DNA of 51,986 nucleotides from a virus (taxonomy: Duplodnaviria; Caudoviricetes), in IMG/VR virus record IMGVR_UViG_3300047409_000500, positions 1-51,986 of that record; one strand, written 5' to 3'. Both the position numbers and the translations under genes were made by a program. Numbering within the stretch: the stretch's first letter is position 1; the number at the start of each line of letters is the position of its first letter. This document shows positions 4,531-51,699 of this stretch, in pieces. A model generated the notes under the pieces. The model was not told the origin of the DNA, made no database searches, and saw nothing but the letters and a program-made list of their open reading frames with translations.

Positions 4531-5678
4531 ACTTCCATTACCTTGAGGCGGGACTGGACCAGCCTGCCATTGGCCCGCTTCCCCTCGATCACAATTTCGT
4601 TCGTGGCCTCATCGAAGCGGGCCAGGGCCATGGGCACGCCGCCGACCATATAAGCGCCCGTCACGTTGCAATCGCCATCGACGTCCAGCTTGTGAGCGGG
4701 CGGGTTCTCGCCGAGGCTCAGGCTCCACACCATCCGCACGTAGGATTGCTCGCCGCTCATCAGAATGCCTACCGACCAATCGTTAGTGCGCAGCGAAACC
4801 AGATCGCCATCCTGGTGAATCAAGACCCACTCGTAAGGGACCGTCCCGTTCTTGTCGGGGAAGGTCACGTTGCCTGTAGACAGAGCGCCCGAAGGTTGAA
4901 TTCGGACGGCGCTTGCGCTATTCAAGGCGAAGCCAGCGGCATCGACGTCGCCCGTCCAGGGAGTTTGGCTCCCGCCGCCGCCACCCCCGCTGATCGGGGC
5001 ACCGTTGACGAAGTATTGGCCTGTGATGTTTACGTCGCCCTGCACGACGACCGCATAGGGACCTGCGCCGGGTCTGCTGGTTTGATTTCCAAAGAAGTGG
5101 GCGTTCATCGCAAATGAGATTCCACCCCCGCCCGTCCAATCCACTTCCATCAGCGTAAAACCCGAGGCTGCGAGTTGCCATCGACCGGAGAAGCATTGAC
5201 CGAAGAAGTTTGTGCCGCCGGGAAAATTAGCGCCATCCGACCAACGAATCGTACTCACATAATTCAGGGCGTGATTTGCCGCGTCGATATCCGAGGTCCA
5301 CGGAGTCTGCGAGGTGTCGGCGGCCCGGGTGTCCTTCAGCGTGGTTTCGATCACGATGCCCACATCGCGCAACTGATCCGTCAACACGGGGATTGAAGCG
5401 CCGCTCGGCCACAGGATGGCGTTGCTTTTCATCTTCCCGGTGGTATACACCAGACAGGACACGGCCCCAAACGTGGCATCGGCATCCTCGCCTACGATCC
5501 CGTTCGGTGCGGTCGCGCCCGAGGTGATCTCTCCGGTTCCTGGATCGATATGGACTACCGCGCCGCGCTGGTACGCGCCGGATGAGAGCGTGCCCTGCAC
5601 ACTGATTACACTGGACCCATCCACCAGGAGCGAATCCTGATCGGAATCGCCTTCGGTCAGAAAACCCGCGACGGGCAT
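4527..5678 (-). CDS. second head-decoration-like protein fused to fibre-like modules
   Basis: N-terminus aligns by eye to the 43324..44223 decoration protein; SQTPWT(S/G)D(I/V)DAA motif occurs twice and is shared with the tail fibre; AAGGAG RBS before ATG 5678. Confidence 0.7.
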   Translation of the reverse strand: MPVAGFLTEGDSDQDSLLVDGSSVISVQGTLSSGAYQRGAVVHIDPGTGEITSGATAPNGIVGEDADATFGAVSCLVYTTGKMKSNAILWPSGASIPVLTDQLRDVGIVIETTLKDTRAADTSQTPWTSDIDAANHALNYVSTIRWSDGANFPGGTNFFGQCFSGRWQLAASGFTLMEVDWTGGGGISFAMNAHFFGNQTSRPGAGPYAVVVQGDVNITGQYFVNGAPISGGGGGGSQTPWTGDVDAAGFALNSASAVRIQPSGALSTGNVTFPDKNGTVPYEWVLIHQDGDLVSLRTNDWSVGILMSGEQSYVRMVWSLSLGENPPAHKLDVDGDCNVTGAYMVGGVPMALARFDEATNEIVIEGKRANGRLVQSRLKVMEV

Positions 5679-8556: not shown

Positions 8557-9050
8557 TGCGGTTTGCCTTTCGGGGGATCTTCGGGATTCGCCGCGCGGCG
8601 CAGCCGCATCAGGCTGCGCAGCAATTCACCCGGAATCGGAATATCCGTAAAGGTGATTTGCGGGGCCGCGTTCTTCGAGATCACCAGGGTAAAGTTTTCG
8701 CGCAGGCCCACTGAGTTATCCCACCCGCCCACGGCGGCGGCCTCCTCCCGCATTTCCGCCCAGGCAAGGTTGCGCGCGATCTCTTCGAGCGCGGCGAGGC
8801 GGCTGATGAGGATGCGCAGCGCCTTGCGATCCTCTTCTCCGTTGGCATCGAACTTCAACGAGTGCTGCGCCAGCATCCCCTGGCGGTCATAATCGTGGGC
8901 CAGCGCCCACAACACCTTGGCATGGAGCGATTGAACCACCACCAGGACCGTCTCGCCCTCTTCCGCCGGGTCGAGCGAGGTGGCGGTTTGCTGTACGTGA
9001 GTTTCGTTGATCCGTAGTAAATCGGCCACAATAGTTTGAAAGATCGTCAT
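8553..9050 (-). CDS. hypothetical protein
   Basis: GGAGGT RBS; ATGA overlap. Confidence 0.6.
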   Translation of the reverse strand: MTIFQTIVADLLRINETHVQQTATSLDPAEEGETVLVVVQSLHAKVLWALAHDYDRQGMLAQHSLKFDANGEEDRKALRILISRLAALEEIARNLAWAEMREEAAAVGGWDNSVGLRENFTLVISKNAAPQITFTDIPIPGELLRSLMRLRRAANPEDPPKGKPQ

Positions 9051-15610: not shown

Positions 15611-16873
15611 ATGAAACAAACCCGTTTGACCCGCCGTAAAGATGCGAACTACCTTTCGGCCTATCGCCGCCATGCCGACGGCTGCACCGAAACCAATGAT
15701 TTGAATTGCAGTTGCCCCCTTTGGGTTCAGGGCCGCCTCGCCGGGAAATACGTCCGCGAAAGCCTGAACACTCGATCCTATCCCATGGCGCAACAGCAGA
15801 TTAAAGACAAGCTGAACCCGCCCGGTCCCGGCGGTCCCGGCGGCGGCCCGCGCCCCGTGGAAATTACCAGCGGGGCCGTTACCCTGGAGGCCGCCGAAGC
15901 CGCCTTCCTGAAATACAAGGCTGACAAGTCCGCCAGCACCATCAAAGAATACAGCTACACGGTGAAGCACTTCCGGCGCTTCGCCGAGGCGCACGGTGTG
16001 ACCGATGTGCGCGCCGTGGCCCCGCCCTTGATCCAGCAGTATTTCCTGGAGTACGGCAACGCCTGGGGGCAGCGCACCAAAATTACCCGCGCTACCTACC
16101 TTCGCATCTGGTGCAAATTCTGGTGTGAGATGGATTGGATTACGGTTTCCCCGGCGGACAAGAAGCTCTTCAGCTTCGCCCGCCCCACGGTCCACGCCCG
16201 CGAACCCTTCAGCATTGACGAAATTAAGAAGATCATGGAGGCCGTCGAGCTTGTGCCCGAGAGTCTTCACCAGGGGCGTGGCGATTGGCGCGGCGAAACC
16301 ATGCCTCACAACCGGGACCGCACCCGCGCCCTGGTGCTGCTGCTGCTCTATAGCGGGATGCGAATTTCCGACGCCGCATTCCTGGAACGCGCCTCGATCA
16401 GCCGCGCGGGCATTCTCGATTACGTGGTGATCAAAACCCGCCGCCAGATTGGCCTGCCCATTCAACTCCACGCGGACGCCATCGCGGCGCTGGCGAAACT
16501 GCCCGGCACGGGTGATTTCTTTTTCCTGCCGCCGGGCGAGTACCGCGCGGCGCTTGACGCCCGCCACAAGGGCCAGCGCTTCGAGGCCAAGCTGCCCGCG
16601 GGATTTATGCGGCAGTCGGTAGCCACCACCGCAGCGCTTATCGAGCGCGTCCTGGAATTGGCGGGGCTGCCGGGGCGGTGTCACCGCTTCCGCGATACCT
16701 TCGCGGTCAACATGCTGGTCGGCGGCGCGGATATTTATACCGTGTCTCAGGCCCTCGGCCACGCCGATGTGAAAATTACGAGTCGCCATTATCTGAATTT
16801 GATTCCCGGCTACCGTGAACGCATGAGCCAATCCACGCGGGTTCTAAATTATCAGTTACCCAAGGCGGGGTAA
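15611..16873 (+). CDS. int: tyrosine integrase
   Basis: LLYSGMRISD (R), HRFRDTFA (HxxR), LGHADVKITSRHY (H, Y). Confidence 0.92.
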   Translation: MKQTRLTRRKDANYLSAYRRHADGCTETNDLNCSCPLWVQGRLAGKYVRESLNTRSYPMAQQQIKDKLNPPGPGGPGGGPRPVEITSGAVTLEAAEAAFLKYKADKSASTIKEYSYTVKHFRRFAEAHGVTDVRAVAPPLIQQYFLEYGNAWGQRTKITRATYLRIWCKFWCEMDWITVSPADKKLFSFARPTVHAREPFSIDEIKKIMEAVELVPESLHQGRGDWRGETMPHNRDRTRALVLLLLYSGMRISDAAFLERASISRAGILDYVVIKTRRQIGLPIQLHADAIAALAKLPGTGDFFFLPPGEYRAALDARHKGQRFEAKLPAGFMRQSVATTAALIERVLELAGLPGRCHRFRDTFAVNMLVGGADIYTVSQALGHADVKITSRHYLNLIPGYRERMSQSTRVLNYQLPKAG

Positions 16874-16888
16874 AGTAGGATCTTTCCG

Positions 16889-16919
16889 AAGGGGCGGCCT
16901 CCGGGTCGCCCCTTTTTTT
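16889..16919 (+). terminator. intrinsic terminator, possibly bidirectional
   Basis: AAGGGGCGGCC-TCCG-GGTCGCCCC followed by T7. Confidence 0.8.
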
Positions 16920-16920
16920 A

Positions 16921-17014
16921 ATCCTTGCGTCGTCCAGCCAGACCGAATCGTGCCAAACCATGCCACACCACACTAAGCCCAATCTAGCCTTGCCAAGTCC
17001 TACCGTGACCCGCC
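16921..17014 (-). ncRNA. stand-alone GG(Y)NN pentamer unit (array C), candidate guide RNA
   Basis: Minus strand ggcaa ggcta gattg ggctt agtgt ggtgt ggcat ggttt ggcac gattc ggtct, then an A-run and a hairpin. Confidence 0.6.
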
Positions 17015-17128
17015 TTTTTCCGTTTATGGGGGCCGCCATAGGCCCGCCGGGGGCGTAGGGGGGCGACGGTTCCCCCCTGCCACCCACGGAGGCCGCCACG
17101 GGGCGGAAACGGGCCGCCATGGGGCAAT

Positions 17129-17383
17129 TTATCGCCCCGTGCGGCGGTACGCATTCTGTTGATAAACCCGCCGCGCCACCGATTCAGGAATGCGCAGGGA
17201 CACATAGGCCCGCTTGCGATTCTTCGTCAGTTTGCCGACCCCGAATTTGATTACGCCCGGTTCGTTGGCAAACCACTTGCGCAGCATTCGGGTGGACATA
17301 TGCCACGCTTCGGCCAGCTGCGCAATCGTGTAATGTTGCTCCAGAAAATCGGGGCGGTCGGTTTCCATTGGTTCCGCCATCAT
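17129..17383 (-). CDS. excisionase-like HTH protein
   Basis: HYTIAQLAEAWHMSTRMLRKWF...LRIPESVARRVY; next to the integrase. Confidence 0.7.
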   Translation of the reverse strand: MMAEPMETDRPDFLEQHYTIAQLAEAWHMSTRMLRKWFANEPGVIKFGVGKLTKNRKRAYVSLRIPESVARRVYQQNAYRRTGR

Positions 17384-17646
17384 GATTGGTATCTCCTCCT
17401 TGCCTCGCCATCGGGATATTCCTGCAGCGTCACCCCGGCCCGGGCGAGGTCGTCTTCCAGCTGCGCTAGATTCTTCGGGAAGGTTTCGTTGTGATCGTGA
17501 TGCAGCACCCAACACAGGACGTCCAGGTTGTGCATCATCGTCGCCTGCGTGTTGGGATCCACGGTCTGCCCCGTGACGGGATCGAGCAGCACTAGGGACA
17601 ACAGATCGTGCGCCCGTTGGATCTCGGCCTCGGTGCGTATCGTCAT
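17380..17646 (-). CDS. hypothetical protein
   Basis: ATGA overlaps. Confidence 0.6.
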   Translation of the reverse strand: MTIRTEAEIQRAHDLLSLVLLDPVTGQTVDPNTQATMMHNLDVLCWVLHHDHNETFPKNLAQLEDDLARAGVTLQEYPDGEARRRYQS

Positions 17647-17762
17647 CGCTGCCCCCACCAGGGCTGCGCGTGGCGCTGGTCGTCGCGGCGGCGGCGCGAA
17701 GGCCGCCGGGCGAAGAAGACCAACACCAGGAAACTTCCGATTACAATCGCCGGCAGTAACAT
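17643..17762 (-). CDS. small membrane peptide
   Basis: TGATG overlap, AAGGAG RBS, one hydrophobic helix followed by basic residues. Confidence 0.5.
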   Translation of the reverse strand: MLLPAIVIGSFLVLVFFARRPSRRRRDDQRHAQPWWGQR

Positions 17763-17938
17763 CAGTCCCACTCCTTCGTTAAACGTGCCCGCCATTCGGT
17801 GAGCAGTAGATCGGCAGCGTTCGCGGCCATCGCCACGGCCTCCTCGACCGTGGCCTGTGTTTCCGTCGCCAGGATCGCGCCGAGGGCCGTCACAGCGGCG
17901 CGTTCCCAAAAGTCACGCTCGGGATCCTTCTTATTCAT
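17762..17938 (-). CDS. small hypothetical phage protein
   Basis: MNKKDPERDFWERAAVTAL...AADLLL; ATG directly follows array B. Confidence 0.6.
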   Translation of the reverse strand: MNKKDPERDFWERAAVTALGAILATETQATVEEAVAMAANAADLLLTEWRARLTKEWD

Positions 17939-18758
17939 AAGCCTTGCCTCTGCCCGCCATAACCCGCCCAACCCATCCTGCCCGGCCTCACCGATTCACG
18001 CCTCGCCTTACATGGCCGACCCCGACCTCGCCTGCCCGGCCAATCCCGGCCAATCCCGGCCACGCCTAAACATGCCTCGCCTGCCGCGCCTCGCCGCCCC
18101 AGGCCCGACCTTTGCTCTACCTGCCAAACCCCGCCTGCCTCGCCATACCCACCCCGATCCGACCTTGCAATATCGCGCCAAACCTGATCACGCCGCGCCT
18201 GCCTTGCCAGCCCCCGCCTAACCTCGCCGATCCGCACCTAAGCAGTCCTAGCCTGCCGCCCTCCACCGGATCGCGCCGGGCCTACCATGCCCAACCTTGC
18301 ACCGCCTGCCCAACCGCGCCATCCCCGGACTCGCCAATCTCCAACGCTCCATCCCACACCCCGCCATACGATGCCAGCCCAACCCTTCCGGGCCAGCCCC
18401 GCCGAGTCGCTCCTAATCCCACCGGGCCGACCGTACCGGGCCTGCCAATCCGCGCCCGTTCTCCCCGTTCCAAGTCGCGCCATCCCAACCCTTACCGAGC
18501 CTGCCTCGCCGTACCCGGCCCGGCCCGTCCAACCGTCTCCCGACCCAACCTCGCCTGCTATGCCCCGCCGTCCCGGATCGGACCCGTACAAGCCGTGACT
18601 CATCCAGCCCGACCGACCCACGCCGTGCCTGCCGTGCCGCGCCTTGCCTACGCTGGCCGTGCCATGCCGTAGCCCCCCCGTACCACGCCTGCCAATCCCC
18701 GCCAGTCCTTGCCTGGGCCGACCGCACCTAATCTCGCCGTACCAGGGCCAGCCATGCC
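17939..18758 (-). repeat. array B: ~820 nt GG(Y)NN pentamer array punctuated by GGCA-GG(C/T), candidate multi-guide ncRNA
   Basis: 5-nt periodicity read directly; plus-strand CCTGC delimiters at 18688, 18628, 18554, 18500, 18441, 18305, 18252, 18198, 18134, 18080, 18031, 17977. Confidence 0.85.
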
Positions 18759-18764
18759 AGAGCT

Positions 18765-19247
18765 TTACGGCACCGCATCGTCGCCGCTCAAATCGGGCGG
18801 CGGCGGCCGGTGCCCATAATTTCGCGCGGCTCTTTCGATTGCGGCGAACACGCCAGCCAACTCTGAAAGCTGGAAGTACTTCACCTTTAGGCGATTCAGT
18901 TCATCCAGTGCATCGGTCAGCATTTGCGCGCGTTCGGATGGGGCCGCCAGCACTTGCGCCATAACGCGATACCCGCCCCCGTCAAGCTGCCGATCCGGTG
19001 TCAGGCTGATGAACGCTCTTACTTGGTAGTGGGGTTCATCGTGCGGAAGTGTCTCCACGGTGACGCGAATTAATTGGCGGGCCTGTTGCAGCCGCCACTG
19101 GTGGGCGGCCAGCCCATCGTCCCACTGGAAGTAACCGTGGAGAGGCGAGTCGGGGTGACTCGCCTCCGCAATTACATCAGCCGGACGCAGCAGCCCGTAC
19201 ATCGCTTGAATGCGATATAGCTCCTGTACCACGTCGATTCTTGGCAT
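18765..19247 (-). CDS. conserved phage protein, partner of the RAMP-like gene
   Basis: LRPADVIAEASHPDSPLHGYFQWDDGLAAHQWRLQQARQLI motif; starts 6 nt after the upstream gene. Confidence 0.8.
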   Translation of the reverse strand: MPRIDVVQELYRIQAMYGLLRPADVIAEASHPDSPLHGYFQWDDGLAAHQWRLQQARQLIRVTVETLPHDEPHYQVRAFISLTPDRQLDGGGYRVMAQVLAAPSERAQMLTDALDELNRLKVKYFQLSELAGVFAAIERAARNYGHRPPPPDLSGDDAVP

Positions 19248-19253
19248 TTTGTT

Positions 19254-19991
19254 TTACCCCAGTGCAACACGATCTATCAGTTTCGTTGCCACGGCATTGT
19301 TGAAGGATTCGTTGCCGTTGGTCTTTTCGATTTCAAACAGTCCCCAGCCCATTCCGGCTGAGTGCTTACTGTCGGGACGCCCCTCGCAGATACCAACCTG
19401 CTGGCCCACCCGCGCCAGCAAGTTAGTCACGTCCTCGAGGGTGAATTGATCGGCATCCCACCGGATGCGCGCGACCGCCGTCCAGTTGTGATAGGCCGCG
19501 CGCACGGTGACATACGGCTGCCCGGTTTCGACACGCGCCATATCCGCCTGCTTGACGGGAGTCGCGTCGCAAATTCGGATCAGCGGGATCTGTGGTTCCT
19601 CGGCATCGACGCCGTCCTTCTCGACGAAGACGGAGAGCTTGGCGAGGACCATTTTGAAGTCCACCAAGCGGCACGCTGAAATCAAGGCTTTCCGAAGCGA
19701 CCCCGCGTGAAAGCCATCCCACCCTTCGCGGCTGATGTATCGCGCCTCTTTGAAAGTCTGGTCCGTGTCCTTCGGTTCCCGATTCTTCTTACTCGACGCT
19801 GCCTTGCCCGTTTCCATCTTTTCTTGCATCTGGTTCTTGAGTTTGGCGCTGAAGCGATGAATTACCAGCGGGCAATCCTCCATGCCGATCAGCTTGAAAG
19901 ATGCATGTTGAAAGTTCACCGGACGGATGTTAATTGTCTTGGATACGGAAGTCTTCGTACCCGCTTCGTTTGCGTTTTTTTGAGTTGCCAT
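19254..19991 (-). CDS. Cas7/RAMP-like protein (candidate Vipr-like effector)
   Basis: PLVIH, GFHAGSLRKALISAC and the C-terminal G-rich loop GICEGRPDSKHSAGMGWGLFEI mirror RAMP motifs; AGGAGG RBS. Confidence 0.7.
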   Translation of the reverse strand: MATQKNANEAGTKTSVSKTINIRPVNFQHASFKLIGMEDCPLVIHRFSAKLKNQMQEKMETGKAASSKKNREPKDTDQTFKEARYISREGWDGFHAGSLRKALISACRLVDFKMVLAKLSVFVEKDGVDAEEPQIPLIRICDATPVKQADMARVETGQPYVTVRAAYHNWTAVARIRWDADQFTLEDVTNLLARVGQQVGICEGRPDSKHSAGMGWGLFEIEKTNGNESFNNAVATKLIDRVALG

Positions 19992-20050
19992 AGCAACCCT
20001 CCTAGATTGAAATTTCTTTCGTTTTTGCCGGGTCGAAAGATAGCCCCGGT

Positions 20051-20590
20051 TTGTTTAGCCAAGCAATGCCGAGTCCCGCCATGTCATGCCTCGCCGTTCC
20101 CAACCTTGCCTGCCATACCTCGCCCAATCGCTACATGCCTAACTGCTACATCCCAGGCCGCCCGAAACGAGACGCACCAAGCCTGCGGTTCCCTGCCCAA
20201 TCTTTCCGACTCGCCCATTCCATAACGCGCCCCGCCCCGCCGTGCCTGCCGGGCCAGCCCAGGCCAATCCCGACCTTGCCCCATCAGTCCTTCCATGCCG
20301 ACTCGGACCAAACCTGCCAGCCCGCGCCTCGCCCCATCGCGCCGCGCCTCAACTTGCCGTCTCGCCCCAAGCCCCGCCGACCCTTGCCGTGCCAAGCCTG
20401 CGAGTCCGATCCCTGCCGCGCCATCGCTTTCCAGCCGACATCGCGCCGAATCGCGCCCTGCCTGCAACGCCGAACCTCAACCAGCCCGGCCCCCAACACA
20501 ACGTGCGGCACCACGCCGAACCAATCCCCGCCTGCCACGCCACGCCCCGACGTGCCCCGCCTATCCTCGCCCCAACTCGCCGTGCCCATC
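20051..20590 (-). repeat. array A: ~540 nt GG(Y)NN pentamer array punctuated by NGCA-GG(C/T), candidate multi-guide ncRNA
   Basis: 5-nt periodicity; delimiters at 20531, 20461, 20397, 20313, 20245, 20182, 20109; hairpin at 20028-20049 follows. Confidence 0.85.
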
Positions 20591-20594
20591 TCAA

Positions 20595-20975
20595 CTACTG
20601 CTTCGTGCCTTCCGAATCGCCGGGCGCTCCGAAGTCAAGCCCCTGTTGCATCTCCTCGGCCGTCATGGCGACCTCTCGAACGTCCTCCCCGGAATCCGCG
20701 CGGCGGATGGTCTTCATGCCCGCCCGGGGCACACCGTAATAGGCGATGCATTGGACCTCGCGCATTTCGCTGCGGTCCTTGATCTTCCCGGCCAGGGTGA
20801 AGACCCGCCCGTTGGCGCGCTTCAAGTCCGCCGAGATCGCGCTGGTGGCTTCCTTCTTGCGTGCTTCGATTTCGCGCACGTCGTCGGCGGCGCGCGCCAA
20901 GGCATCACCGAGTTCCAGCAACTCGGCCCTGGTGAAGGTGTACTTTAATTCTTCGATTACCAGCTTCTCAGCCAT
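20595..20975 (-). CDS. conserved phage hypothetical protein (coiled-coil)
   Basis: GAGGAG RBS; IRRADSGEDVREVAMTAEEMQQGL. Confidence 0.7.
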   Translation of the reverse strand: MAEKLVIEELKYTFTRAELLELGDALARAADDVREIEARKKEATSAISADLKRANGRVFTLAGKIKDRSEMREVQCIAYYGVPRAGMKTIRRADSGEDVREVAMTAEEMQQGLDFGAPGDSEGTKQ

Positions 20976-21122
20976 CTACATCTCCTCTTCCGCGCCGCAG
21001 TCCAAACATCGATAACCGACCCAACGACGGCGCTCTTCGGTCCCATCAGGATGGGTAACTCCGGTGCCTGATTCACCGGACTCCTCGCGCAAATTCCAGG
21101 AACCGCACACGGAGCACACCAT
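20976..21122 (-). CDS. 48-aa Zn-ribbon protein
   Basis: Read by hand: MVCSVCGS...YRCLDCGAEEEM; fills the gap exactly. Confidence 0.6.
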   Translation of the reverse strand: MVCSVCGSWNLREESGESGTGVTHPDGTEERRRWVGYRCLDCGAEEEM

Positions 21123-21124
21123 CA

Positions 21125-22111
21125 CTATTTCCCCGTCGTCTGCGTCGGCGGTCCCGGGGCCGGGCTCTCCGGTTCCGCCTGGAGAAAACTTTCCTGGGCG
21201 AGAATCTTGTCGCGCACCGACCGCCCGCGCGGCGGCGCGGAATCCTCGGTGGGCGGAGCGTCGATGGCCCCCTGCAAATCCGCCGGCAGCATCGCGGGCG
21301 GCATGGATTCCATGGGGATCATCTCCAGCGCTTCTTCGCGGGACACCGCGCCGCGCAGCACGTGGGGCGCGTGGAATTTCTTCACCCGGCCCACCGTGCG
21401 CCAGTAGTACATGTCACGGCCCCAGGATTTGAAATTCCATTTTTCCGAGAGCGGGATCTGCTTGCCCTTCTCCCAAATCATCGCGGTGTCGGCATCGAAC
21501 TGCGTGAAGCTCACCGAGATGGCTTTGCCGCTGCGGTCGAGGATCGGATTGTAGCGCTGCTGGCTGGCGCTCCACTTCTTGATCCACAGCACGCAACCCA
21601 CGCACTTGCGATGCTTCCGGCCCTTATGGTCGACTTCATCCTCCAGCCATTCGATGTCCCACTCGTACCCGGCCTGCTGCAGCTTGGCAGCAATAATCTC
21701 GTTCTCGATGGCGGGCCGCCCGTTGGCGAAATAGAGGTAGCGCATCGAGTCAGCGGCGTTCAATCCCCAGTTACGGCCTAAATTGATCTTGACCATGGCG
21801 GTCGCAATCGCCTGATCGGCGGTGGCCGCCTTGAGATCGTCAAACTGGCCGCTAAGGGCGAACTCGCGCGCCAGCGCCCGGTCCTGGGCGAAGGTTTGCC
21901 GGGCCACCTCGGCGTCGACCAGCGCGCTGATCCACGCTTCGCGCTTCACGTTGTCGGGCATTTGCAGAAGGTGCTCGATGCTCACGCGCGAGGGCCGCCC
22001 GGTCGAGTCGGCCTGGGCGGGCTGCATGGATGGCGCCTGCGCGCTCAATTGCATCCCGGCGGCCGGGGGCGGTTCGGGCGCAGCGGTAGTGTTGCCTTCG
22101 GTTGGTTCCAT
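21125..22111 (-). CDS. RecT-like single-strand annealing protein (putative)
   Basis: Follows the YqaJ gene; LYFANGRPAI...WNFKSWGRDMYYWR...APHVLRG pattern. Confidence 0.6.
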   Translation of the reverse strand: MEPTEGNTTAAPEPPPAAGMQLSAQAPSMQPAQADSTGRPSRVSIEHLLQMPDNVKREAWISALVDAEVARQTFAQDRALAREFALSGQFDDLKAATADQAIATAMVKINLGRNWGLNAADSMRYLYFANGRPAIENEIIAAKLQQAGYEWDIEWLEDEVDHKGRKHRKCVGCVLWIKKWSASQQRYNPILDRSGKAISVSFTQFDADTAMIWEKGKQIPLSEKWNFKSWGRDMYYWRTVGRVKKFHAPHVLRGAVSREEALEMIPMESMPPAMLPADLQGAIDAPPTEDSAPPRGRSVRDKILAQESFLQAEPESPAPGPPTQTTGK

Positions 22112-50129: not shown

Positions 50130-51518
50130 TTAGGCAGACGGCTTCTGTTCCACGGGTTGCTCTGCCGGGTTCGCAGTCTTGGCCGCTGATCGCACAGCGG
50201 CCTTCTCTTTTTCCAGAATCAATCTCTCTCGCTCCACCTGGAGGTAGTTCGCCCCGGTGGCCGCCAGGATCGGCTGGCGCTTGGTGTAGTTGCGCCAGCG
50301 CTTCAGAATCACATCGCAATAGACCGGGGCAATCTCAATCAGCCGGGCCTTCCGGCCCAGGCGCTCCGCGGCGATTAGCGTTGACCCACTTCCCCCGAAG
50401 AAATCAATCACCAAATCGCCGCGGCGCGTGGAATTCATCAGCGCCCGCTCCAGAAGCTCGACGGGTTTCATCGTCGGGTGCTCCCGGTTGGCCTGGGGCT
50501 TCTTCTCGGCCCAGATGGTGGATTGCGTGTTGTCGCCGTACCAGAGGTCGACGTCGCCCTTGCGGTGGCAGTAAACAATCGTCTCGTGCTGTTGCTTATA
50601 GCGGTTGAACGTCATCACGAAGTGATTCTTCGCCCAGACGATGTGGCAGCGGATTACGAACCCGGCCCCTTCCAGCGCGCACTCGAAGGCCGTATGGCGC
50701 ATCAGCGCCAGGAAGCAGTACATCGACCCGCCGGGCTTCAGGCAATCGGCGTAAACCCGCATCGTCGCGTCGATGAAGTCCTGGAAGTCCTCGGGCGAGG
50801 CGTCATCCTGCTCGATTTGGTCGTGGAGCTTCTCCCGCTTGCCGTTGACCCGCGATTCGCGCCGCGACCGGGCGCTGTGGTGGTAATCGACGTTGTAGGG
50901 CGGGTCGGTCAGCACCAGCTGCGCCTTCTCGCCCTCCATCACGGCGTCGACGGTCGCCGGATCCAAACAGTCGCCGCAGACCAGCCGATGATTCCCCAGG
51001 AGCCAGAGGTCGCCCGGGCGCGACACCACATCTTCCGCGGTTGCCGGCGCTTCATCGGCGTCGGTGTCGCCCTCAATCGGATCGCCCGAAGCTTCGAGTA
51101 GCTCTTCCAGTTCCTTTTCAGTGAATCCCGTTACGGTGACATCGAAGTCATCGGCCAGGAGTTCCTTCAACTCTTCCCGCAGGAGCTTCTCATCCCACCC
51201 GGCGTTTTCGGCCAGCTTGTTGTCGGCGATGATGTAGGCGCGCTTTTCGGCGTCCGACAAGTGCCCCAACGGGATCACCGGGGCTTCCGGCATCCCGAGC
51301 TTGTAGGCGGCCCGCAGCCGGGCGTGGCCCGCCAGGATATCCCCGTTAGCCTCGTCCACCAGGATGGGCTGTGTGAAGCCGAATTTGATAATCGAGGCGG
51401 CGATCTGGTCGATCTGTTCGTCGGTGTGTGTCCGGCTGTTTTTGGCGTAGGGCATCAAGCGCCCGAGCGGCCACATTTCCACACGATTTGCCATCGCCGG
51501 AATCAAGAAGTTAGACAT
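50130..51518 (-). CDS. ParB-like domain fused to N4/N6 DNA methyltransferase
   Basis: ILAGHARL/IIADNKL (ParB-N); DPPY, HPTMKP, FGGSGST (MTase). Confidence 0.9.
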   Translation of the reverse strand: MSNFLIPAMANRVEMWPLGRLMPYAKNSRTHTDEQIDQIAASIIKFGFTQPILVDEANGDILAGHARLRAAYKLGMPEAPVIPLGHLSDAEKRAYIIADNKLAENAGWDEKLLREELKELLADDFDVTVTGFTEKELEELLEASGDPIEGDTDADEAPATAEDVVSRPGDLWLLGNHRLVCGDCLDPATVDAVMEGEKAQLVLTDPPYNVDYHHSARSRRESRVNGKREKLHDQIEQDDASPEDFQDFIDATMRVYADCLKPGGSMYCFLALMRHTAFECALEGAGFVIRCHIVWAKNHFVMTFNRYKQQHETIVYCHRKGDVDLWYGDNTQSTIWAEKKPQANREHPTMKPVELLERALMNSTRRGDLVIDFFGGSGSTLIAAERLGRKARLIEIAPVYCDVILKRWRNYTKRQPILAATGANYLQVERERLILEKEKAAVRSAAKTANPAEQPVEQKPSA

Positions 51519-51699
51519 AATCGTGTTACGAATTACTAAATTCGTGCTACCAACGCTTTGCCCGCGATTATGCAAGACAAATCTCACCGTGTCAAGCGCC
51601 GAAGCGCCGCGCCGCCATGAAGTTAGCCCGAACCATGCCGATTCTTGACGTCTTGTACTTGTCGCACGGCAGCCACAGTGGAAATTGCAGCGGAACTGT

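Follow-up and report, generated by a model that had tools for sequence, protein, structure and literature searches.

A Stand-Alone Single-RRM RAMP Protein Flanked by YNNGG Arrays in a Soil Phage Is Very Probably the Vipr of a VIPR System

INTRODUCTION

A small viral protein that looks like a building block of CRISPR effector complexes and stands outside any cas operon raises the question of which system it serves. We address this question for a gene, here called vipr, in IMG/VR virus record IMGVR_UViG_3300047409_000500 (Duplodnaviria; Caudoviricetes), of which positions 1 to 51,986 were analyzed; this whole stretch of 51,986 nt is referred to as the window. The gene is an ATG-to-stop open reading frame (ORF) at 19254..19991 on the (−) strand, encodes a 245-aa RAMP protein with a single RRM (RNA recognition motif), and is preceded by a Shine-Dalgarno-like AGGAGG (19998..20003, minus strand), read from the sequence 6 nt upstream of the ATG. 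A first-pass annotation had interpreted it as a single-RRM, Cas7-like backbone subunit outside any cas operon, carrying three RAMP hallmarks, and had suggested that it might form filaments on array RNA. We found that the ORF is very probably the Vipr of a phage-borne VIPR (Viral Interference Programmable Repeat) system.

In full-text literature searches, VIPR was described only in preprints of 2026 (April to October). According to the available text of the first (10.64898/2026.04.26.720920), Vipr is a minimal RAMP with one RRM that occurs mainly in phages and prophages, usually beside one accessory gene (vap), and the vap genes are predicted to interact with DNA. Intergenic tandem YNNGG repeats of at least 4 units flank vipr and encode vrRNAs with 9–16 such repeats each, built from a conserved GGY and a hypervariable NN. 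Double-stranded DNA (dsDNA) is read through the NN bases, every third base being skipped, and rival mobile elements are transcriptionally silenced. The same preprint distinguishes seven types, has a supplementary list of 2,664 Vipr sequences, and includes among its array forms "staggered arrays with overlapping vrRNAs" (in the legend of its fig. S18, "staggered vrRNA arrays ... 1 nt overlapping positions"), which in the available text are not among the architectures confirmed by small-RNA sequencing. A structure preprint (10.64898/2026.04.26.720927) describes SUSP1 Vipr as a right-handed filament with one protomer per pentamer repeat of guide RNA, in which H17, R138, D177, W178, and R179 hold the two guanines and the pyrimidine (GGY). 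A third 2026 preprint on VIPR systems is 10.64898/2026.10.15.759431.

RESULTS

Conserved motifs and family of the protein

All three hallmarks claimed by the first-pass annotation are present in the protein, namely FKLIG..PLVIH at residues 32–45, GFHAGSLRKALISAC at residues 93–107, and VGICEGRPDSKHSAGMGWGLFEI at residues 199–221. Across 26 close relatives, 79 alignment columns are invariant, including H45, A96, R100, I104–C107, R164, G200, E203–S208, G213, and W216–F219. Among 59 diverse relatives (32–63% identity), G93, G196, G200, G204, R205, G213, and G217 are still invariant, and R164 is nearly so. Judged by this sequence conservation, the three motifs are not chance look-alikes and belong to the best conserved parts of the family.

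The family is large and unnamed. A word-indexed search with Vipr returned 3807 proteins at an E-value of ≤1e-3 among 4145 candidates, and the 120 relatives listed were without a Pfam domain, their sole name being "hypothetical protein." A full hidden Markov model scan of 1.84 billion cluster representatives (clusters at 50% identity) yielded 2547 matches at E ≤ 1e-3, of which 1478 reached ≤1e-10 and 315 reached ≤1e-30. Vipr itself matched no Pfam, NCBIfam, or PADLOC family at E ≤ 1, RAMP models included, and its PHROGs match was phrog_4652 (function unknown; E = 2.3e-10). Homologues with 45–69% identity were also seen on contigs of metagenome-assembled genomes (MAGs) labeled Gemmatimonadaceae, Bacteroidota, Paludibacter, Anaerolineales, Deltaproteobacteria, and Planctomycetota, a labeled host range that is very wide for so conserved a protein; the binning of such phage contigs may be unreliable.

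Predicted fold and its nearest solved relatives

The AlphaFold2 model of Vipr, built on the 26-sequence alignment, had a pLDDT (predicted local distance difference test) of 78.9 and a pTM (predicted template modeling score) of 0.72. From the N terminus, the model runs through a strand (27–36 plus 42–44), a helical insertion, a strand (92–95), and a helix (96–106), followed by further strands including a hairpin (145–152/160–167) with a low-confidence tip, a strand (171–179), a helix (185–199), a long glycine-rich loop (200–218), and a last strand (219–221). The three motifs fall on RRM elements of this model, with the first forming beta1, the second a strand plus helix-1, and the third occupying the position of the G-loop, i.e., the loop between helix 185–199 and strand 219–221. 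In the PDB, Foldseek identified 14 matches with E ≤ 1e-3, every one of which was a CRISPR type III, type VII, or Cas7-11 effector chain (top match 6ifl_F, E = 1.7e-4; TM-scores across matches 0.33–0.44); the nearest solved folds are Csm3 and Cmr4, and Cas7 was also matched. The model and the Foldseek comparison, both of which the first-pass annotation had proposed as a check, thus returned a RAMP-related and not an unrelated fold, in agreement with the Cas7-like single-RRM fold that it had put forward.

Phages are known to carry parts of CRISPR-Cas systems. With Csm3 and Cmr4 as the nearest solved folds, the protein could be a stray or decayed Cas7, Csm3, or Cmr4 of a phage-carried CRISPR-Cas system, in which case the flanking repeats would be unrelated low-complexity DNA. 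We consider this extremely improbable. The protein lacks any match to the family models above; PADLOC found no cas protein among the 14 window proteins scanned, and TRF found no CRISPR-like repeat-spacer array in the window, which agrees with the claim that the gene lies outside any cas operon. Furthermore, the only solved relative found by profile is a Vipr and not a Cas7 (see below), and the repeats are strand specific, follow an exact pentamer rule, and are seen next to the gene in 43 of the 53 related loci that could be tested.

That solved relative is SUSP1 Vipr. A profile of the 59 diverse sequences, compared with the PDB (177,635 distinct sequences), had a sole match, chain 36pp_D ("SUSP1 Vipr protein"; E = 4.9e-6), and the 26-sequence profile found the same chain at E = 0.022. 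The aligned pairs (residue here/residue in SUSP1) include R164/R138 in the thumb, E203/D177, R205/R179, and P206/P180, and the helix-1 motif I104-x-A106-C107 aligns with I73-x-A75-C76. At the level of sequence profiles, these matches indicate homology to the characterized SUSP1 Vipr. The class to which the protein would belong was named and characterized as VIPR in 2026, and for that reason we regard it as a separate RAMP lineage and not as the Cas7 of a CRISPR system.

YNNGG arrays on both sides of vipr

Direct-repeat and custom scans revealed a period-5 pattern on both flanks of vipr, on the minus strand only, i.e., the strand of the gene. Downstream lies array A (17940..18760, minus strand), a vrRNA-like tract that a Viterbi segmentation divides into 14 in-phase YNNGG blocks with 4-nt CAGG junctions; upstream, between a 126-aa ORF and vipr, lies array B (20040..20595, minus strand), likewise vrRNA-like, with 11 in-phase blocks. 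The segmentation used five states for YNNGG, and the null consisted of 300 dinucleotide-preserving shuffles. Array A, run on 17940–18770, scored 246.4 versus 65.3 ± 8.6 for shuffles (z = 21.0) and −130.2 on the plus strand, while array B scored 135.4 versus 34.5 ± 7.1 (z = 14.3) and −95.9 on the plus strand. Across the whole window and both strands, the only 500-nt tiles above the 99th percentile were minus-strand tiles within 17801–18900 and 20001–20800. Terminator-like sites between 16800 and 21200 numbered two, both on the plus strand, with no excess over shuffles.

The region of array A (17930–18770 scanned) holds 153 pentamers, 118 with GG and 88 with both Y and GG, and that of array B (20040–20600 scanned) holds 98, of which 67 have GG and 52 have both. 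In well-formed blocks, defined by at least 6 pentamers and at least 65% GG, position 4 is G in 96% of pentamers, position 5 is G in 83%, and position 1 is C or T in 75%, with positions 2 and 3 being near-uniform in base use. Most blocks contain 8–16 pentamers, and typical block lengths are 49, 54, 59, and 64 nt (5n−1). Adjoining blocks are joined by a truncated 4-base CAGG unit at which the register slips by −1; CAGGC junction motifs number 12 on the minus strand of array A, and GGCAGGC occurs on that strand 13 times inside arrays A and B versus 9 times in the other 50 kb. All four window blocks that are flanked by good blocks have a length of 4 modulo 5.

Two plus-strand, proline-rich ORFs run through the arrays, one of 186 aa (18112–18672) and one of 243 aa (20051–20782), and gene callers would probably report both as proteins. 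If the tracts were in fact protein coding, the vipr ORF would be just an unrelated hypothetical protein. We give this explanation a practically negligible chance: a period of 5 with −1 slips cannot be reconciled with any conserved reading frame, base use at the variable positions is close to uniform, and relatives keep the pentamer rule yet share no block at ≥85% of NN bases (best 16/20). The plus-strand ORFs are instead by-products, because the CCNNR periodicity of the complementary strand generates them.

A comparison of the locus with four soil-metagenome runs yielded short DNA contig pieces only. Two of these, 151-base contigs from another soil-metagenome run with a different study code, match 17904–18054 and 18063–18213 with 0 differences; therefore, the same array A guides exist outside the probable source sample.

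A solo block (S1; 16920..17016, minus strand) has the integrase gene on one side and a 128-aa ORF on the other and comprises 18 pentamers, 11 of them with GG. Its score was 27.3 versus 0.9 ± 3.3 for shuffles (z = 8.0) and −20.7 on the plus strand. S1 is located ~0.9 kb past the end of array A and may represent another vrRNA locus of this system, which would be its third.

Conservation of the locus in relatives

To 46 viral contigs (44–79% protein identity) we added 8 MAG contigs, giving 54 related loci, with the array threshold set at the 99.9th percentile of 4168 null tiles located >4 kb from the gene. A YNNGG array was present within 2.5 kb downstream in 43 of the 53 testable loci and upstream in 6 of 51; in 45 of 52, the ORF directly downstream of vipr is homologous to the 160-aa ORF of the window. 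The related loci contain 199 well-formed blocks. Of the 55 such blocks that are flanked by good blocks, 53 have a length of 4 modulo 5. GGCAGG ends each of the eight most frequent junction words, which together account for 64 of 97 junctions. The junction rule therefore belongs to the clade and not to this contig alone. No window block recurred in the arrays of the 54 loci (best 16/20 variable bases, outside arrays), which is consistent with a conserved scaffold that carries hypervariable guides.

The closest homologue in an isolated phage is g34 of Cyanophage Cy-LDV1 (BK059895.1; 50% identity). Same-strand YNNGG tracts with GGCAGGC junctions flank its next gene, g33 (4651–4850 and 5426–5600 of the examined segment), and lie near genes for a cI-like repressor, an excisionase, bet, and exo. 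More remote homologues (27–30% identity) occur in 27 Mycobacterium and 5 Gordonia phage records, e.g., gp49 of Mycobacterium phage Donkeykong (NC_051648.1). A strong same-strand YNNGG tract lies just upstream of gp49 (2601–2850 of the examined segment; 150-nt tile score of 67 versus a median of −14), where it is overlapped by an annotated coding sequence, "gene 48, hypothetical protein." The isolated-phage homologues, all annotated as "hypothetical protein," belong to the early/lysogeny region, where genes for a repressor and an excisionase are close by. The available main text of 10.64898/2026.04.26.720920, its supplements aside, makes no mention of "Mycobacterium" or "cyanophage."

Phage context

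The window is a virus record with genes for a large terminase, portal, head protease, tape measure, tail proteins, and a tyrosine integrase, together with a replication initiator and a repressor-like helix-turn-helix protein; its source is a temperate tailed phage from soil. The unit formed by vipr and its arrays lies on the early-gene strand, between recombination genes and the integrase gene (15611–16873, plus strand). Next to it is a YqaJ/RecE-like exonuclease (phrog_434, E = 4.8e-53), and a nearby ORF is weakly RecT-like (phrog_4171, E = 0.0053).

These neighbors, just downstream of which vipr is located, would suit a phage recombination or replication accessory, i.e., an RRM-like mediator of single-stranded DNA binding or annealing that acts with the exonuclease and the RecT-like protein, with the GC-rich tracts serving as an origin, iterons, or bent DNA; the Cy-LDV1 homologue near bet and exo points the same way. 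However, an exonuclease was found in only 3 of the first 46 related loci and a RecT-like gene in none, whereas the 160-aa neighbor and the arrays are kept in most of the 54 loci. Moreover, the arrays obey the published YNNGG RNA code on the strand of the gene only, and the protein has profile homology to one shown to bind such RNA. We therefore judge a recombination role highly improbable.

Two further features of the window lie far from vipr. A 485-aa protein (50130–51587, minus strand) has a ParB-like domain at its N terminus together with a DNA methyltransferase (phrog_498, E = 2.6e-150; phrog_620, E = 1.8e-55), and tandem repeats on GGCGGCCTT, with periods of 9 to 57, are found at 592–722 near the left end of the contig.

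Predicted self-association

Residues 20–228 of Vipr were folded in three copies with a 59-row alignment alongside three controls. The interface score ipSAE was 0.60 (runs 0.60, 0.64, and 0.58) versus 0.00 for the best control, the runs had at least 72% of contacts in common, and partner pLDDT was at least 81. In calibration, the ipSAE mark was reached by 20 of 30 solved homo-pairs and 1 of 23 solved single chains, counts that are only a rough guide for three copies with a custom alignment. The predicted interface is asymmetric and joins the G-loop, helix 185–199, and the thumb side of one copy to the side of the next copy that carries the N-terminal strand and helix-1. Such asymmetry is as expected for a head-to-tail polymer, and the model thus suggests, as support and not as a measure of binding, that the earlier idea of a backbone subunit has merit. 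The high ipSAE may also reflect likeness to, or memory of, solved RAMP filaments.

The conserved neighbor of vipr

Directly downstream of vipr is a conserved gene of 160 aa (18765..19247, minus strand), which we consider a candidate vap (vipr-accessory) gene. The protein matches phrog_15946 (E = 9.7e-17) and has 129 relatives at E ≤ 1e-3 that are unnamed save for one odd automatic label. In its model (pLDDT 86.3), a compact N-terminal domain made up of helices plus a small sheet leads into a ~40-residue helix. Searches returned no significant sequence match in the PDB (best E = 0.32), no Foldseek match at E ≤ 1e-3, no family in Pfam, NCBIfam, or PADLOC, and, in the ESM Atlas, only unnamed viral clusters. 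The gene is likely to be the vap accessory gene. A weak likeness to winged-helix proteins hints at a DNA-binding accessory, which is consistent with the preprint's description of vap genes and is not a proof.

Search for guide targets

Guides were taken as the two variable bases per pentamer of blocks with at least 8 pentamers and were compared with the window and the 46 viral loci (700,449 bases) at skips of 0–3. In this set, matches of ≥80% at skip 1 were no more frequent than for guides of shuffled order, and no self-target stood out. Exact-pattern scans of the viral contig collection gave 0 matches for guides A9, A4, and A13 and for the first ten units of B4, and a scan of the metagenome contig collection gave 0 matches for guide A5. 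In the latter collection, guide A9 had three matches, which are one identical sequence in three sibling records. The site begins 4 nt into a stop-to-stop frame and is for that reason probably intergenic, and in neither open frame does the skipped base coincide with the wobble position; given this probable location and the wrong codon phase, we treated the A9 match as chance.

Guide A11 (18082–18135) had one match in the viral contig collection, at 20 of 20 variable bases. The match lies at 8945–8973 (minus strand) of a 36,217-bp Mu-like virus record and covers codons 16–25 of a phrog_1748 gene that encodes 326 aa. This gene has a regulator gene on one side and a Mu-like transposase gene (phrog_310) on the other and is located just upstream of the latter; here, the skipped base is at the wobble position. 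Against the same record, the other guides stayed below 80% except the short B6 (14/16), and B1, at 18/24, beat 50 of 50 shuffled controls; a clear convergence of other guides on this record was not seen. The chance expectation is ~0.1 match per 20-base pattern, a rough figure based on an approximate database size, and over the scans made, a single match is therefore not significant. We regard the A11 match, which is near chance level, as a lead and not as a finding.

DISCUSSION

What the locus itself offers is a RAMP fold, profile homology to a characterized Vipr, pentamer arrays on the strand of the gene, a junction rule, a gene order, and a phage context, and all of these were observed here directly. 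Together, they make it very probable that the ORF is the Vipr of a VIPR system, and they support the interpretation of the first-pass annotation. A real RNA-guided system was recognized from raw sequence alone, and its kind was already in print as VIPR (2026). The locus is a new member of that known kind, and its clade may already be present in the supplementary lists of the VIPR authors.

Several observations weigh against this assignment. First, the link to SUSP1 consists of the fold and of a profile match spanning ~47 residues; a single-sequence phmmer search against PDB chains found only 36pp_D at a nonsignificant E of 0.69. H45 aligns with SUSP1 H17 only in a stretch scoring 0.1 bits, and in the alignment the invariant G204 takes the place of SUSP1 W178, the residue stacking on the second G, i.e., the tryptophan is not kept. 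Because of this glycine, GGY recognition here is not identical in detail to that of SUSP1. Second, many pentamers are degenerate: GG is missing from 35 of the 153 pentamers of array A and from 31 of the 98 of array B, and only 16 of the 25 blocks of both arrays pass the well-formed filter. Third, the repeat tracts, whose blocks abut via CAGG, lack an invariable structured 3′ tail like that of SUSP1; Rfam, at its gathering threshold, found no family in the window, hammerhead included, and a scan of 16800–21200 found no sigma-70-like promoter. Fourth, seven exact-pattern scans (six guides) and the local search produced no convincing natural target. Transcription of the arrays and their binding by the protein would be argued by analogy with SUSP1, and the placement is at the level of the VIPR system, without a type (I–VII).

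By the same analogy with the systems of the preprints, we infer RNA expression, a filament on RNA, reading of DNA with one base skipped, and silencing. The minus-strand unit (array B, vipr, the vap candidate, and array A) would be transcribed as an operon, and Vipr protomers would bind the RNA, one per YNNGG pentamer, coating each in-register run. The GGY bases would be held by strand beta1 (H45), the thumb (R164), and the G-loop (E203 and R205), leaving the two variable bases exposed. One guide would correspond to a run of ~8–16 in-register pentamers, bounded by the 4-base CAGG junction (register −1, "staggered") in place of a structured 3′ tail. The filament would then pair its NN bases with dsDNA, skipping every third target base, and thereby block transcription of a rival mobile element, with the 160-aa winged-helix-like neighbor possibly acting as a DNA-binding helper.

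A further step is our own proposal, namely that the −1 slip at CAGG terminates one Vipr filament and begins the next, which would explain why neither a tail nor a ribozyme is needed. If the register slip bounds the guides, a transcript of ~0.8 kb could carry a dozen or more guides with no structured tail, ribozyme, or dedicated nuclease, and the locus could hold a multi-target library of ~25 guides, A11 perhaps being directed against the early operon of a Mu-like phage. We put this forward tentatively, as a possibility that we ourselves find rather doubtful; if true, the phage would possess a silencing library far larger than those of characterized systems.

The characterized VIPR examples are type II systems of E. 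coli and Pseudomonas. The present locus represents a very large, strongly conserved, and uncharacterized VIPR branch with staggered arrays in phages of soil and other environments. Comprising a protein of 245 aa, its partner of 160 aa, and blocks of 49–64 nt, it offers a compact test case that could reveal what sets the ends of guides when there is no tail and how a Vipr recognizes GGY when the stacking tryptophan is missing. As a mere guess, W216 of the GMGWG motif might substitute for that tryptophan.

Among known systems, the staggered form of VIPR, as described in the available text of 10.64898/2026.04.26.720920, is the closest, sharing a small single RAMP with G-loop and thumb, same-strand YNNGG arrays with variable NN bases, a two-gene operon of vipr and, here, a candidate vap in a phage or prophage, with no cas gene among the 14 window proteins scanned, blocks of 8–16 pentamers, and a one-base register shift. 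To the characterized VIPR type II proteins, the protein of this locus is only remotely similar (pairwise E = 0.69 with SUSP1), and it has a glycine in place of the G2-stacking tryptophan. The arrays also differ in scale and layout: SUSP1 has four vrRNAs, whereas this locus has ~25 blocks in much larger arrays, and type II (the SUSP1/P. fulva clade) has a structured 3′ tail and discrete vrRNAs of ~100 nt, neither of which is found here. In comparison with Csm3 and Cmr4 of the Cas7 family, the protein has no membership in their sequence families, no cas operon as judged from the proteins scanned, and no CRISPR repeat-spacer array. The guides differ as well, since that of Csm3 and Cmr4 is a contiguous spacer directed at target RNA, whereas that of VIPR is a pentamer repeat whose published target is dsDNA read with gaps.

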